A stretch of DNA of 43,054 bases from an uncultured Opitutales bacterium. GTDB lineage: Bacteria; Verrucomicrobiota; Verrucomicrobiia; Opitutales; UBA9783. Below the pieces are notes generated by a model. That model saw only the letters and a list, made by a program, of their open reading frames with translations, made no database searches and had not been told where the DNA came from. The position numbers and the translations under genes were made by a program. Position 1 is the first letter of the stretch. Every line of letters begins with the position of its first letter. The stretch is from the NCBI GenBank assembly GCA_944389435.1, contig CALXMI010000016.1, positions 1 to 43,054 on the forward strand. The letters run 5' to 3'. Below, in pieces: positions 24,112 through 39,800 of this stretch.

Positions 24112-24860
24112 CGACGCGACGTCCTCGGTGCCTTTAAACAAGCGGCTCTTCAAGCATAATTTAGGCCTCCTTGTGCACGTTGCCCAGTCAGAGTTTTACC
24201 AGCTTATAGGGGAGACATAAACTGGGCGTAGGTTAGATCAATCTGGAACACATAAATAAGCCCAGACCGCGTCCTGCTGATTAAGGAACTGCGGACATTT
24301 GCCAACCCCCATGGCCCAAGCTCAAAATGGATGAACGGGGTTGTGGGTTGAGACAGCCCTTAGTCAAGCGGCAAAAGAAGGAATCTTGCTTCCACCGAGA
24401 CAGGAAGTTGGTTTCTTCAGCTTCGAACGGATATCGAGAGTAGGAGTAGATGGAATGTTTGGGTCGATTACAGAGAGGTTCAAGAAAGTTTAGAAGTAAG
24501 TTGAGGGTCAGTTCGGGACGGCTCGTAATCTCAGATCGCGTCCTGCTGATTAAGGAACTGCGGACGGTATCCGAAACCAATACAGGATCGAGTTGCGGAT
24601 GACCACAAAGTTCAGGAGTAGATTGAACCTCTAGACTCTGGATCGCCTTCTACCCTCTTTTGCCCCAGCTTCTTTTTCTCTCTGCCTAGAATTCTTGCTA
24701 ACCTATTGTTGGTACTGAATGTAGGATATGAGACAAAACCGCATCTTAAAGTTTAAGCCTTCTCTGGTTTATTTTAGCTCGGATGAGTTGCGAACGACCT
24801 AACTTTTAAGGTTCGGACTCAATAAACCACACTCCTCCTGCTGCCAAAAACAGCGGGTAG
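24112..24860. repeat. Repeat locus A: degenerate tandem array of a ~270-bp unit
   Basis: The best unit, 24263-24565, is bounded by a 34-nt direct repeat, CAGA(C/T)CGCGTCCTGCTGATTAAGGAACTGCGGAC. Copies at 24263-24296 and 24532-24565 are 33/34 identical, with a period of 269 bp. Degenerate copies lie near 24118, 24741 and 24833. Only one ORF of 60 aa or more is tracked between 24067 and 25031. Confidence 0.8.
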
Positions 24861-25031
24861 GTTGGCTTGACGAAACGAGAGCCAGACGGCGCAAGGTTGC
24901 CAAAGAAAACAATCTCCCAAATTTGTAAATCCAAAACACCTCTAGCTACAGGTTCAAGATAAATGCCATAAAAGCACGGTCTTTAAGTTCCATCCAACAT
25001 GTGCTTATGCTTGAAGACCGCAGTCATGGGA

Positions 25032-25262
25032 TTAGCTTTCGTCTTCTTCCTTTTGGCGCTGAATTTCTTTCATCATTTCTTGCGTATAACGCCGATTAGA
25101 CGACAACATTTGTTCAAAAATGTAGCGCGTAGTTTGCTTTTTCATGCGATCTTGCAATTCCTCTGTTGTTAAGCCTTTTACCTCTTCAACAACAGGAATG
25201 TTTTCCTCCTCTTCGCTCGCTTGGACAGGAACGCTCACCCCAGATATAGGATTAACCGACAT
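25032..25262 (-). CDS. Small acidic hypothetical protein (76 aa)
   Basis: ORF with charged, helical composition (EEEENIPVVEE..., QRQKEEDES). No motif. Confidence 0.4.
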   Translation of the reverse strand: MSVNPISGVSVPVQASEEEENIPVVEEVKGLTTEELQDRMKKQTTRYIFEQMLSSNRRYTQEMMKEIQRQKEEDES

Positions 25263-25352
25263 GGTAATAACTCCGTGTAAAAAATTTCTTTGTTGTTTGT
25301 TTTGAGTTTCGACTCAATCATACGCCGGGTACATTTTAACTCGGAATAGGAC

Positions 25353-25381
25353 TTGTCATACGTCTGTATTTTATGTTATAT
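25353..25381 (+). promoter_or_regulatory. Possible sigma-70-like promoter for the hexapeptide-repeat gene
   Basis: TTGTCA (25353-25358), a 17-nt spacer, then TTATAT (25376-25381). Confidence 0.3.
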
Positions 25382-25401
25382 GAAAAGAGAAAGCAAATAA
25401 A

Positions 25402-26049
25402 ATGATCTATCCACATCAATTATTTCAAGCCTTCCCTTCTCATTTGCCCTTTGCAGAAAGTTTTCCTATGGATGTTGCCGTATTCGAATGGGTTCCACGT
25501 ATCGCCGAAGCGCTCAAAACATTTTTCCAATCTTGTCCGCAAACAGGACGTATTTTTTCAAAAGTGCCTCCACAATTGTACGTAACCGGAGATGTTTATA
25601 TTGGTGAAAATGTTCAATTACCACCCTTTGGTTACATTGAAGGTCCTACTTACATTGGCAAAGGCTGTGTCTTGCGACCAGGCGTCTACATACGAGGCAA
25701 CGTCATTGCTGGCAAAGGCTGCGTTTTGGGCAATTCGTGCGAATTTAAAAATGCCTTGCTGTTGGAATACGTTCAGGCTCCTCACTTCAATTACGTAGGA
25801 GATTCCATCATGGGATCTCATACTCACCTAGGTGCCGGTTGTATCCTGTCGAATTTGAGATTTGATCAACAGCCAATCTGCATGCGTAATCTTAACAAAG
25901 AAAAATTTAATACAGGTCTAAGGAAGCTGGGCGCTATTTTAGGTGATCATGCGGAAGCTGGCTGTAACGCAGTTCTGTTACCAGGCGCGTGCTTATTCCC
26001 TTACACTCAAGTTCTCCCCTGCGAGACTTTCGGCGGGACAAGAGCTTAG
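25402..26049 (+). CDS. Left-handed beta-helix (hexapeptide-repeat) protein, GlmU C-terminal/sugar-nucleotidyltransferase-associated type
   Basis: 215 aa. Successive [LIV]-G-x-x-x-x repeats (YIGENVQL, YIGKGCVL, YIRGNVIAGKGCVLGNSCEF, HLGAGCIL). Confidence 0.6.
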   Translation: MIYPHQLFQAFPSHLPFAESFPMDVAVFEWVPRIAEALKTFFQSCPQTGRIFSKVPPQLYVTGDVYIGENVQLPPFGYIEGPTYIGKGCVLRPGVYIRGNVIAGKGCVLGNSCEFKNALLLEYVQAPHFNYVGDSIMGSHTHLGAGCILSNLRFDQQPICMRNLNKEKFNTGLRKLGAILGDHAEAGCNAVLLPGACLFPYTQVLPCETFGGTRA

Positions 26050-37711: not shown

Positions 37712-37712
37712 A

Positions 37713-38501
37713 ATGCCAGCCCAAACGTCCCTTATCTACGATCCTATGGGGATTATTATTTTCCTTATTGGATTATCGTTAGCACCTTTTGTCTTTATGA
37801 TGGTCACTTCTTTCTTAAAGTTGGTCATCGTAATGAATTTGATCAGGCAGGCTATGGGCTTACAACAAGTTCCGCCAAACATAGTTGTTAACGGACTTGC
37901 GATTGTTTTAACGCTTTACATCATGGCTCCTACGTTACAAGAAAGCATTCACCGTGTTGTGGAAGCCAATCAATTATTAGAAGCCAGAAAGCAGGCTATG
38001 AACACCTTTGAACTTCCTGAAAAAGTAAAAGCCTTTTCATCTAAAACTTCTACAGATGCGCAATGGTTAACGGCACTCACCTTACAAAATAACAACGAAG
38101 GGCGCAATAAGGTTGAAGAATTAAAAGCCATTTTAGGCTACACCAAGCAACCGATTACCGATTTCATTATAAAACATTCCTCGAATCGGCATCGGGCTTT
38201 TTTTATGCATATCGCTAAGCGTTTATGGCCTAAGAACTATTTAAAAGATTTACAAGAAACGGACTTAATTATTTGTGTCCCTGCCTTCATTTTATCAGAA
38301 CTCTCGGCCGCTTTTGAAATCGGATTCCTTGTTTATCTCCCCTTTATTATTATTGACTTAGTCATTTCCAACATCTTGCTTGCAATGGGTATGATGATGG
38401 TATCACCTATGACAATTTCGTTGCCGTTTAAGCTGATGCTGTTTGTGTTAGTAAATGGATGGGATAAGTTGATTGAAGCGTTAGCATTGACCTATCGCTA
38501 A
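37713..38501 (+). CDS. sctR: T3SS export apparatus protein SctR (FliP family)
   Basis: 262 aa. SFLKLVIVMNLIRQAMGLQQVPPN, FEIGFLVYLPFIIIDLVISNILLAMGMMMVSP. Confidence 0.9.
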   Translation: MPAQTSLIYDPMGIIIFLIGLSLAPFVFMMVTSFLKLVIVMNLIRQAMGLQQVPPNIVVNGLAIVLTLYIMAPTLQESIHRVVEANQLLEARKQAMNTFELPEKVKAFSSKTSTDAQWLTALTLQNNNEGRNKVEELKAILGYTKQPITDFIIKHSSNRHRAFFMHIAKRLWPKNYLKDLQETDLIICVPAFILSELSAAFEIGFLVYLPFIIIDLVISNILLAMGMMMVSPMTISLPFKLMLFVLVNGWDKLIEALALTYR

Positions 38502-38583
38502 ACACATACTTTTTAAAATCATTCTACAAAAAGGAAACCTTTTTACAGGCCTACATTTACCTACAAAATCGATCAAAAGGAAG

Positions 38584-38676
38584 TGGCGGAGAGAGAGGGA
38601 TTTGAACCCTCGAAGCCCCTTTTGAGAGCTTACCTTCTTAGCAGGAAGGCGCTTTAGACCACTCAGCCATCTCTCC
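38584..38676 (-). tRNA. tRNA-Ser (anticodon GCT), long variable arm, CCA encoded
   Basis: The reverse complement reads GGAGAGATGGCTGAGTGGTCTAAAGCGCCTTCCTGCTAAGAAGG...GGTTCAAATCCCTCTCTCTCCGCCA. Confidence 0.9.
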
Positions 38677-38944
38677 TCTAAATTCTCCTTATATGAAAAC
38701 CCATAAATTCAACCGTGTCAATGAAGAACCATCATAAAAATCAATAGCATACGAATTGGACAACCTTTGCAAACGTTTCACCTCAACAGGACCTTATCCT
38801 ATCGTCTTTTAACAATCGCTACTGCTCAATCCCTAAACCAATCTTGATATCCGAACTTCGTTCTAGCCAACACGAACTACTCCTGAGCTTGTAACCATAT
38901 CCGCAGCTTGCCCCGTCCTGACTTTCTGATACCCTCCGTACTTG

Positions 38945-39800
38945 TTTAACCACTAGGATGCCGTGGTCTTAGAGGTTGTTAGAACGATCCAATTTACTTC
39001 TATTCCTAAACTCGGCTACCACCTTGAACTGGCCCTTAACCTACTTCTAACGTCTTTTGAACTAGGTCAGCGATCTAAACATGTTCTGAAGTAAATCCAA
39101 TTCGCACTGACTGAACATCAGGACTCGATCGATCTGCCTAGGTACCTATTTAAACCTTCAACCTCGTCCATCCATTTTGAATCTTGGCTATGCCGTCTAC
39201 AACCTTTTCAGACAGTTCTTGAACAGTAGGATGAGGACCCGATCCTTATGGTTGTTCGAGTTGCCTGTGCACTTGAAAAGGCCTGTCCAGAACCTCCAAC
39301 CCAACCTACTCACACTATCGATAAGCAGCAAAAAGTGGTGAGGCATTCTAGGCAGAAGAAGAGAGGTTTTAGCGGGATGTCAAAGACGGTCGGACGCGGA
39401 TCCGGGTCTTAGAGGCCATCCAAACTGGAAGGTTCTCCTTTTGTACTTTAAAGACAATCCATAAAATTTTCCAAATGCCCGATAGGCCTTAATCACTAGG
39501 ATGCAGTCGAAATTTCATTCAGCTAGCACAACCTATGCCTAGGTTTGGTTTCTATCCCATCTCTGGCCTCATTCCACTCATCTTTGAAGCCGGGTTGTAA
39601 GGTTTTGTTACACGCATGAAAATTCTTTCGCCACTAGGACACCGTTCGAACCCATCTAGAATCCTTTATGATAAGCACGTACCACTCCCACCATTCCATG
39701 GCAGACCGTAACTAAAAGGCCATCGGGGATTCTAAGAATCATTCCAAACCTAAGACAACCCAACCAAAACACTAAGATGCGGCCCCATCTACTCCCGAAC
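38945..39800. repeat. Repeat locus B: degenerate tandem array, homologous to locus A in the opposite orientation
   Basis: The unit-start motif CA(C/G)TA(G/A)GA(T/C)(G/A) occurs at 38951, 39224, 39494, 39632 and 39770, with spacings of 273, 270, 138 and 138 bp. No ORF of 60 aa or more is tracked between 38502 and 39880. Confidence 0.8.

Follow-up and report, generated by a model that had tools for sequence, protein, structure and literature searches.

Diverged inverted copies of a lineage-specific non-coding repeat bracket the T3SS block of a gut Opitutales/Puniceicoccales bacterium

One repeat unit is present in old, mutually inverted copies in two long non-coding loci, A and B, of the 43-kb stretch of DNA that we analyzed (the window), and these loci bracket a 13.6-kb block that carries a T3SS gene cluster in one fixed orientation. 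We consider it somewhat better than an even bet that A and B are neutral relics of one old array, and that an ancient rearrangement split this array or duplicated it in inverted orientation. The host is a gut Opitutales/Puniceicoccales bacterium and not a chlamydia, an origin that the GC content and the T3SS might suggest; the relatives of its SctN are all from Verrucomicrobiota or PVC MAGs, the best at 87%. The loci and their boundaries are:

22695-23990, minus strand: SDF symporter gene, whose start is one edge of locus A
23991-25031, no strand: locus A, the non-coding gap from the SDF symporter start to the 76-aa ORF stop (ORF list and Pfam)
24010-24051, minus strand: SDF leader or promoter region; a 43-nt alignment with the short spacer upstream of SDF in L089, L090 and L091 has 81% identity
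25032-25262, minus strand: 76-aa ORF (sm76), whose stop is the other edge of locus A
25032-38676, no strand: bracketed segment between A and B (Pfam, ARAGORN/Rfam)
38584-38676, minus strand: tRNA-Ser, whose 5' end is one edge of locus B
38677-39929, no strand: locus B, the non-coding gap from the tRNA-Ser 5' end to the MFS permease stop
39930-41279, minus strand: MFS sugar-phosphate permease gene, whose stop is the other edge of locus B

The bracketed segment contains sm76 (-), a hexapeptide transferase gene (+), an RDD-family gene (-), folD (-), a hypothetical gene (-), rluB (-), sctD to sctR (+) and tRNA-Ser(gct) (-), and thus folD, rluB and the T3SS cluster do lie between the pair, as the initial annotation had noted. 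No other non-coding gap in the window exceeds 1 kb or matches A or B in length, and gaps so long are odd for pure debris in a compact genome.

The initial annotation had also proposed that A and B belong to one repeat family in inverted orientation, and formal local alignment bears this out, with similarity that is extended and far above chance. Gapped local alignment of the reverse complement of A (23991-25031) with B (38677-39929) scored 163.5, against 60.6 +/- 9.6 for dinucleotide shuffles of the whole loci (z = 10.7), whereas the same-strand comparison scored 55, which is background. A core of 365 nt (A 24621 to 24257, B 38877 to 39240) reached z = 15.4, with 230 matches, 76 mismatches and 117 gap columns of 423 (28%), which gives 75% identity over the paired positions. 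A second register (A 24732 to 24527, B 39309 to 39514) reached z = 8.3 at 74.6% identity. The longest exact word common to A and B is 12 nt, and this, together with the ~75% identity and the dense indels, marks the copies as old and decayed. Every one of the four longest inverted repeats in 23900-40000 pairs A with B:

24310-24356 (A) with 39146-39192 (B): inverted repeat pair
24478-24514 (A) with 39026-39062 (B): inverted repeat pair
24265-24301 (A) with 39472-39508 (B): inverted repeat pair
24681-24711 (A) with 39326-39356 (B): inverted repeat pair

The five islands of similarity listed in the initial annotation are all present, within 1 nt of where it had placed them. They are not simply colinear, but follow the circular permutation that it had described: in B, the islands ATTCTAGGCAGA and GCGATCC... 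and the box sit downstream of the other two, which agrees with a locus B that exceeds one tandem unit. The unit in locus A is single and ~480 nt long, and locus B appears to contain ~2.3 degenerate tandem units of ~540 nt; the two-register alignment to A places at least 1.5 units in B with a period of ~540 nt, and the spacings of the B boxes (273, 270, 138 and 143 nt) suggest the value of ~2.3. The parts of the units are:

24257-24526, minus strand: S2 of locus A, with island X (24478-24514), island Y (24310-24356) and box A1 at its end; core alignment to B 38965-39240
24257-24296, plus strand: box A1, a 40-nt direct repeat with core CGCGTCCTGCTGATTAAGGAACTGCGGAC
24526-24565, plus strand: box A2, the second 40-nt box copy
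24527-24732, minus strand: S1 of locus A, with islands a (ATTCTAGGCAGA), b (GCGATCCAGAGTCTAGAGG) and c (CTACTCCTGAAC) and box A2; aligns to B 39309-39514
38877-38964, plus strand: partial S1 of locus B, with island c and box B1; 75% identity to A 24625 to 24520, z = 11.4
38965-39240, plus strand: S2 of locus B, with island X (39026-39062), island Y (39146-39192) and box B2 (~39205-39240) at its end; part of the z = 15.4 core
39309-39514, plus strand: second S1 copy of locus B, with islands a and b and box B3 (39472-39508); register-2 alignment
39515-39929, plus strand: degenerate tail of locus B, with two box-like motifs (~39623-39645 and ~39765-39785) followed by a c-like motif (39787-39800); seen in direct-repeat family D4 and on comparing the boxes

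The 3' part of S1 in A (24625 to 24520) matched B 38873-38980 at 75% identity (z = 11.4), and the stretch at 39309-39514 appears to open the next tandem unit. Within B, unit-to-unit similarity beyond the ~20-nt box was not significant, and neither was the homology of the tail (39515-39929) beyond its boxes (z = 1.9). As for the alternating tandem array of the initial annotation, the permuted registers fit more than one unit in B; A is one unit, and Tandem Repeats Finder reported no array in A or in B. At least seven copies of the box are present in all, and those in B are strongly degenerate. Boxes A1 and A2 lie 269 nt apart with unique sequence between them and are 37/40 identical, including an identical 29-nt stretch; such identity amid unrelated surroundings suggests selection or gene conversion on the box, which runs against a relic. 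The box was also considered as a relative of the tRNA-Ser anticodon arm or as a tRNA-derived repeat, and we rejected this because there was no alignment and ARAGORN and Rfam were blank.

From the sequences searched, the repeat family appears to be single-copy and not dispersed. No further copy was found elsewhere in the 43-kb window, and in the runs that contain the genome the cognate contig was the only one on A at >=80% identity, with a depth equal to its flanks; the search covered the window, ~35 kb of same-species DNA and these runs at >=80% identity, and copies of ~70% elsewhere would escape it. The box motif did not recur elsewhere in the window, in 93 other loci or in the ~35 kb of further same-species DNA. 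Searches with the repeat unit by nhmmer and blastn in 80 + 5 + 5 relatives' loci returned same-species copies only. A metagenome scan with the best-conserved island, CTRRCCCTYAACYTACTTCTAA, gave three matches, which were to the pattern alone and were dismissed as chance.

The orientation of the block is fixed within the species. Five metagenome assemblies of the species, together with the contigs of two more sequencing runs, make up seven sources that each span one or both loci, and all have the order and orientation of the window. This orientation was found in L084/L095 (one scaffold), L085, L094, L096 and L097, and again in contigs of runs X1, X2, X5, X6, X7 and X9; L085 is probably a contig of run X2. 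No inversion (strand-changing) joint was seen in the same-species assemblies and contigs, where rare forms would fall below assembly level, and GC skew did not change sign at A or B. One X6 contig joins 38744 to 28677 through 33 extra letters and was considered as a T3SS-less or circular form. We set it aside as unreliable; its joint did not qualify, and there was no alignment on the narrow stretch around 28677.

Both loci lie at lineage-specific synteny breakpoints, and comparison with relatives, a check suggested in the initial annotation, showed that at both repeats the gene order departs from that of every relative available. Ahead of SDF, relatives have a 116-aa ORF and aroA, or else a Mur ligase gene, and the spacer is 70-225 nt long; their sm76 and hexapeptide genes come after sctR (L001, L003, L005) or after rluB-L33 (L087); and in one relative (L098) MFS is followed by MatE. 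The repeat was absent from all relatives' loci examined, and the SDF leader or promoter region at 24010-24051 is the sole part of A that relatives have in common with it. The junctions between the hexapeptide gene and the RDD gene and between rluB and sctD are breakpoints too and are free of the repeat, an observation on the other side of our preferred explanation. The nearest different species has 70-81% protein identity, a distance that puts the ancestral gene order beyond reconstruction. Derivation of A from the relatives' pre-SDF genes (116-aa ORF, aroA, Mur ligase) was rejected for want of tblastn similarity, and insertion of the A-to-B block between SDF and MFS was rejected because these genes are not adjacent in any relative. 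The sole tyrosine recombinase gene (21815-22738) is paired with SDF, and this pairing is conserved in relatives, so the enzyme is probably a housekeeping Xer. No integrase adjoins tRNA-Ser, and no att-like second copy of any part of tRNA-Ser was found in the window. As an alternative, the initial annotation had suggested that the family may border a mobile or rearranging segment. The place of the repeats at breakpoints agrees with rearrangement, but a mobile segment found no backing in a transposase, a tRNA-side integrase, an att-like tRNA duplicate or any sign of movement.

A and B drift at about the neutral rate. Within the species, substitutions in B amount to 1.1-1.3%, against 1.2-1.4% at third codon positions and 0.56-0.62% at first and second positions; those in A amount to 0.48%, against 0.57% and 0.24-0.31%. 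The estimate comes from just 5-16 SNPs per locus, which are few to stand behind a neutral rate. The conserved islands also carry SNPs, and strain indels in B comprise an 11-nt deletion at 39432 and a 35-nt to 66-nt replacement at 39711-39747. With the tools used, function in A and B is undetectable. There was no frame-consistent coding signal in A, no Pfam match in five of the six-frame translations, and no tblastn match of A or B translations to 80 relatives' loci. Rfam, whether run at the gathering threshold or with E <= 10, returned only tRNAs and nothing for A or B, and fold z-scores of +0.22 to +0.54 on all four strands indicate no excess folding energy relative to shuffled controls. One low-depth metatranscriptome contig covers B 39272-39516, an observation less expected of a relic.

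We also weighed a mobile-element origin, in which A and B would be what remains of a small non-autonomous element (MITE-like or an IS remnant) whose copies inserted independently at two sites, perhaps aided later rearrangements, and then decayed. The copies are inverted, non-coding, ~0.5 kb long and confined to one lineage, both sit at breakpoints, and in A a perfect 13-nt inverted repeat (24147-24159 and 25005-25017), of which ~0.01-0.04 would be expected by chance, brackets 871 nt. These 13-nt termini are absent from B, and no transposase or relic was found in either locus by Pfam on translations or by tblastn against relatives' loci; no target-site duplication flanking the repeats was visible by eye. 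A discrete element with fixed ends would not give homology that is circularly permuted and, in B, tandem. No other copy turned up at >=80% in the runs that contain the genome, nor any box in the ~35 kb of further same-species DNA. We therefore regard a mobile element as unlikely, if the least unlikely of the alternatives. The initial annotation had raised homologous inversion of everything between the arrays, and the inverted geometry and significant homology would suit present-day RecA-dependent inversion of the 13.6-kb block. RecA-dependent recombination needs ~20-30 nt of perfect identity, and its efficiency drops steeply with divergence. With a longest match of 12 nt, ~75% identity and dense indels, A and B are too diverged for homologous inversion. 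The single orientation in all same-species assemblies and contigs, which as assembled contigs could let rare subpopulations escape, and the lack of a GC-skew break also stand against it, and of all the readings we hold this one the most improbable.

Functional non-coding elements, either paralogous small-RNA genes or arrays of protein-binding boxes acting on the T3SS block or its neighbors, could account for the repeated box with its 29-nt identity in A, the patchy, island-like similarity of A and B, the length of the two gaps and the transcript contig on B. Such elements are nevertheless quite unlikely: the loci evolve at about the third-codon-position rate with SNPs and indels striking islands and boxes, the boxes in B are degenerate and a candidate box hairpin is lost in B1 (by eye), folding energy and Rfam gave no support, no relative has kept the repeat, and the copies are opposite in orientation while the neighboring genes are equally oriented. 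We give a slim chance to an undescribed lineage-specific non-coding element (a host-protein-bound box array or convergent/divergent small-RNA loci) that insulates or co-regulates the T3SS block, or allows very rare flipping relative to replication. Slimmer still is the chance that A and B are pseudogene remnants of a duplicated protein-coding gene. A does keep a 122-codon stop-free frame (24284-24649, minus strand) that spans most of the unit in the direction of the flanking genes, B would be frameshifted, and short peptide-level matches exist (ELTLNLLLNFLEP and ELALNLLLTSFEL), but the A-B matches hop between frames and both strands, as expected of DNA-level similarity. A search with the longest open frame of A in 1.84 billion representative proteins gave one match, P0121 (E = 3e-4), which was rejected as a homologue because it is a repetitive, junk-like ORF whose score was summed over seven repeats. 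The frame has no Pfam match and is rich in Ser, Arg, Leu and Pro, like non-coding translations, and by a rough estimate ~0.2 such open frames per 1 kb are expected by chance in six frames.

A relic of rearrangement is thus the explanation that we prefer. The ancestral state would have been one lineage-specific non-coding array, with a unit of ~0.5 kb and two 20-40-nt boxes, pieces of which were left in opposite orientation on the two sides of the 13.6-kb block. We infer that the simplest origin would be a single ancient rearrangement, either an inversion that broke within the array at one of its ends or a duplication, in inverted orientation, that arose at the breakpoints. The pair is a clean, small example of old rearrangement scars, in which significant homology is useless for recombination, and the T3SS block of this bacterium is not in an active invertible or mobile cassette. 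Given closer genomes, the repeat pair could be a marker with which to retrace how heavily the genes near the T3SS have been shuffled; beyond that use, it is ordinary.

A literature search on Opitutales and type III secretion returned nothing relevant, and we compared the pair with systems known from elsewhere. Composite transposons and other IS-flanked segments are a poor match, since Pfam and tblastn searches gave no transposase relics in A or B and the two have no common terminal inverted repeats. In tRNA-linked genomic or pathogenicity islands, a T3SS can likewise lie beside a tRNA gene (here tRNA-Ser) with repeats on its flanks, but such islands have repeats that copy the tRNA 3' end in direct orientation and an integrase beside the tRNA, whereas here the repeats are inverted, unrelated to the tRNA and without an att-like copy, and the block includes the housekeeping genes folD and rluB. 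MITEs and REP/BIME families are, like A and B, non-coding, intergenic and lineage-specific, with a short imperfect palindrome (here the box), but they have defined ends and tens to hundreds of dispersed copies, in contrast to two known loci at single-copy depth with a motif absent elsewhere in the sampled DNA. The repeats found where bacterial inversions end (IS copies, rRNA operons, duplicated genes) are also inverted homologues that bracket a gene block at synteny breakpoints. Active end-points have long, near-identical repeats and both orientations among strains, whereas A and B have ~75% identity, a 12-nt match, one orientation and no repeat-encoded genes. In Drosophila inversions, staggered breaks create inverted duplications at the breakpoints, a mechanism that to our knowledge is not established for bacteria. 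The pre-inversion state here is beyond the reach of the distant relatives, but A and B would resemble the Drosophila case in that a once single sequence or array would be left duplicated, inverted, at both ends of the inverted segment without the need for a mobile element.

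Only two non-coding gaps in the window exceed 1 kb, locus A (23991-25031) and locus B (38677-39929), and they lie among its genes as follows.

602-5003: MgtE, HD and LigA
6616-9762: Mu-like head genes
up to 18412: rhomboid, Tsp, tRNA-Met and tRNA-Arg
18479-23990, minus strand: LplA, MgsA, AlaDH, Xer-type recombinase and SDF symporter
23991-25031: locus A
25032-28675: sm76 (minus), hexapeptide transferase (plus), then RDD, FolD, a hypothetical protein and RluB (all minus)
28850-38501, plus strand: sctD, I-like, TPR, I, J, K, L, N, O, P, Q and R
38584-38676, minus strand: tRNA-Ser(gct)
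38677-39929: locus B
39930 onwards, minus strand: MFS sugar-phosphate permease, PilD-type peptidase and diadenylate cyclase

This DNA is not of chlamydial origin: the best relatives of the T3SS ATPase SctN (33768-35090) are encoded by gut MAGs (rumen, chicken and termite) of Opitutales/Puniceicoccales, at 87%, 85% and 81% identity, followed by other Verrucomicrobiota, Kiritimatiellia and Lentisphaerae. The runs containing both loci almost word for word were chicken-gut and other gut metagenomes and one synthetic community. The latter, run X1, contains the genome at 100% identity, and an isolate therefore probably exists. The T3SS operon terminates at sctR (end region 37713-38584), as in relatives L001, L003 and L005 and all other compared lineages. 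None of sctS, sctT, sctU, sctV or sctC is within the window, and the same is true of the L001, L003 and L005 loci; two other relatives, L089 and L092, carry genes for a secretin and for CesT-type chaperones ~5 kb upstream of SDF. Inside sctP (35532-36653), which encodes a putative needle-length ruler, a 78-nt (26-aa) unit is repeated in tandem for 2.9 copies (35867-36096). This repeat differs between strains, with an additional 81-nt step in sequencing run X2, and the product is 373 aa long in the window and same-species assembly L095 and 351 aa long in L094 (ERZ16268055) and L096, also of this species. Such length polymorphism of the putative ruler could alter needle length. ARAGORN called a tRNA-Leu(tag) within the sctJ/sctK coding coordinates (32545-32633, minus strand), and made the same call in same-species locus L084; Rfam did not report it at the gathering threshold, and thus the call is probably a false positive.

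Outside the T3SS operon, phage-type genes fill the stretch from 5589 to 14941, which is bounded by ligA and a rhomboid gene. They comprise a large terminase (6616-7935), a Mu-type portal (7877-9133), a Mu-like protease (9130-9762) and unannotated ORFs, and make up either the remnant of a Mu-like prophage or a head module of GTA-like type. The Xer-type tyrosine-recombinase gene and the SDF symporter gene overlap at the latter's end (pair at 21815-23990). Because this pair is kept in relatives at ~80% identity, the Xer-type gene probably encodes a housekeeping recombinase and not a mobile-element integrase. In L094, the MFS permease gene is 120 nt shorter without a change of frame (at window 40699-40818), and the product is 409 aa versus 449 aa.

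The initial annotation described A and B as one repeat family in inverted orientation, and we found its five islands all present to within 1 nt. The four longest inverted repeats within 23.9-40 kb all link A to B. In gapped local alignment, the reverse complement of A scored 163.5 against B (dinucleotide shuffles, 60.6 +/- 9.6; z = 10.7), whereas the same-strand score of 55 was at background level. The core alignment (A 24621 to 24257, B 38877 to 39240) gave z = 15.4 from 230 matched and 76 mismatched positions plus 117 gap columns, and a second, independent register (A 24732 to 24527, B 39309 to 39514) gave z = 8.3 at 74.6% identity. We conclude that the homology between A and B is real and inverted.

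In B's orientation the unit reads a, b, c, box, X, Y, box, where the letters are conserved islands and the box is a repeated 20-40-nt motif. The parts are placed as follows.

24732 to 24257: locus A, a single unit
38877-38964: locus B, starting in mid-unit with c and box
38965-39240: locus B, X, Y and box, then a short linker
39309-39514: locus B, second a, b and box

A's two boxes (24526-24565 and 24257-24296) agree at 37 of 40 positions, at a distance of 269 nt. The tail of B holds two further box-like motifs and one c-like motif, and box-to-box spacings within B are 273, 270, 138 and 143 nt. Judged by the alignments and spacings, B appears to be a tandem series of about 2.3 units (~540 nt each) in a strongly degenerate state, and A is one unit. 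This corresponds to the earlier idea that both are windows of one alternating tandem array. TRF detected no array, and unit-to-unit similarity inside B was not significant beyond the box. We also observed a perfect 13-nt inverted repeat, TCTTCAAGCATAA (24147-24159) and TTATGCTTGAAGA (25005-25017), spanning 871 nt of A. About 0.01-0.04 such repeats are expected by chance; by eye, allowing a single bulge lengthens it to about 17/18 nt, and locus B has no counterpart.

Unit-like sequence was found nowhere else in the window, and the degenerate box motif was absent from 93 other loci. In four runs holding the genome, matches to A of at least 80% fell on the cognate contig only, at a depth equal to that of the flanks, and scanning metagenomes for the best island gave three matches, all attributable to chance. 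As far as this sampling reaches, A and B appear to be single-copy apart from each other rather than members of a dispersed family. A tRNA-linked island was also rejected, as no piece of tRNA-Ser recurs within the window.

We compared substitution rates between the window and same-species assemblies, for which counts are small. B differed by 1.1-1.3%, versus 1.2-1.4% at third positions and 0.56-0.62% at first and second positions of neighbouring genes; the values for A were 0.48%, versus 0.57% and 0.24-0.31%. The SNP positions include islands c, Y and b and the boxes. In a more distant strain (runs X6 and X9), T3SS coding DNA differed by ~0.5% (tally) versus 2.6-3% in B, which also carried indels, and one metatranscriptome contig had an 11-nt deletion in B. 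On these small counts, both loci appear to behave as unconstrained DNA in apparently neutral drift.

A and B sit at two junctions specific to this species, and the repeat is in none of the relatives' loci. The relatives are distant: identity of the hexapeptide protein falls from 99% to 71% with no intermediates, and at the nearest relatives SDF falls to 81% and MFS to 79%. There, a 116-aa ORF with aroA, or a Mur ligase, precedes SDF at a distance of just 70-225 nt, and the only part of A in common is the SDF leader (24010-24051). The sm76-hexapeptide pair directly follows sctR in L003 and L005, follows it after five housekeeping genes in L001, and follows rluB-L33 in L087; MgtE-HD, at 0.6-3 kb in the window, comes after the pair in L086 and L087. 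Small blocks (sm76-hexapeptide, RDD-folD-rluB, PilD-MFS and the T3SS operon) remain near one another in an order shuffled between lineages. The suggestion that the repeat marks the border of a rearranging segment agrees with the position of A and B, but the junctions hexapeptide gene-RDD and rluB-sctD are breakpoints without it. One flip of the A-to-B block would join sm76 to MFS-PilD, which is reminiscent, suggestively only, of L098 (hexapeptide (minus), sm (plus), four genes, PilD, MFS and MatE, with sctD 9.8 kb further).

The copies are old. We lean slightly toward A and B being relics of one ancient non-coding array, which an old rearrangement would either have cut or have duplicated in inverted orientation at its end-points. 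What such relics explain least well is the near-identity of A's two boxes and the sheer size of both gaps. That A and B instead descend from a small mobile element, as two copies now decayed, is unlikely. Functional box arrays or small-RNA loci are a doubtful reading: Rfam returned tRNAs only, even at E <= 10, core folding was no better than that of shuffles (z = +0.2 to +0.5, all four strands), and the boxes themselves vary. A pseudogene pair is improbable. Although A holds a 122-codon open frame, its single match among 1.84 billion proteins (E = 3e-4) was a repetitive, junk-like ORF; translated A-B matches switch frames and strands, and six-frame translations matched nothing in 80 relatives' loci or Pfam.

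The remaining alternative, that A and B are working substrates for homologous inversion as the initial annotation proposed, is scarcely credible despite their inverted homology. The window's arrangement recurs in ERZ16268176 scaffold_245 (ENA), which spans both loci, in same-species ERR10610570, ERZ16268055, ERZ17292903 and ERZ17292904, and in contigs of runs X1, X2, X5, X6, X7 and X9. Same-species assembled contigs, which do not reach rare subpopulations, yielded no joint that changes strand, and GC skew keeps the same sign across A and B. Separately, a run X6 contig (depth 10.5) was listed as linking 38744 to 28677, the exact outer limits of the T3SS operon and tRNA-Ser, with 33 unplaced letters; it never qualified as a joint, was absent from the narrow stretch around 28677, and is probably spurious. 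Taken together, we conclude that the orientation of the A-to-B block is fixed among same-species assembled contigs. RecA-dependent exchange requires perfect identity over ~20-30 nt and becomes log-linearly less efficient with divergence; the two arms share no exact run longer than 12 nt, at ~75% identity and with dense indels, and present-day inversion by these repeats is very unlikely.
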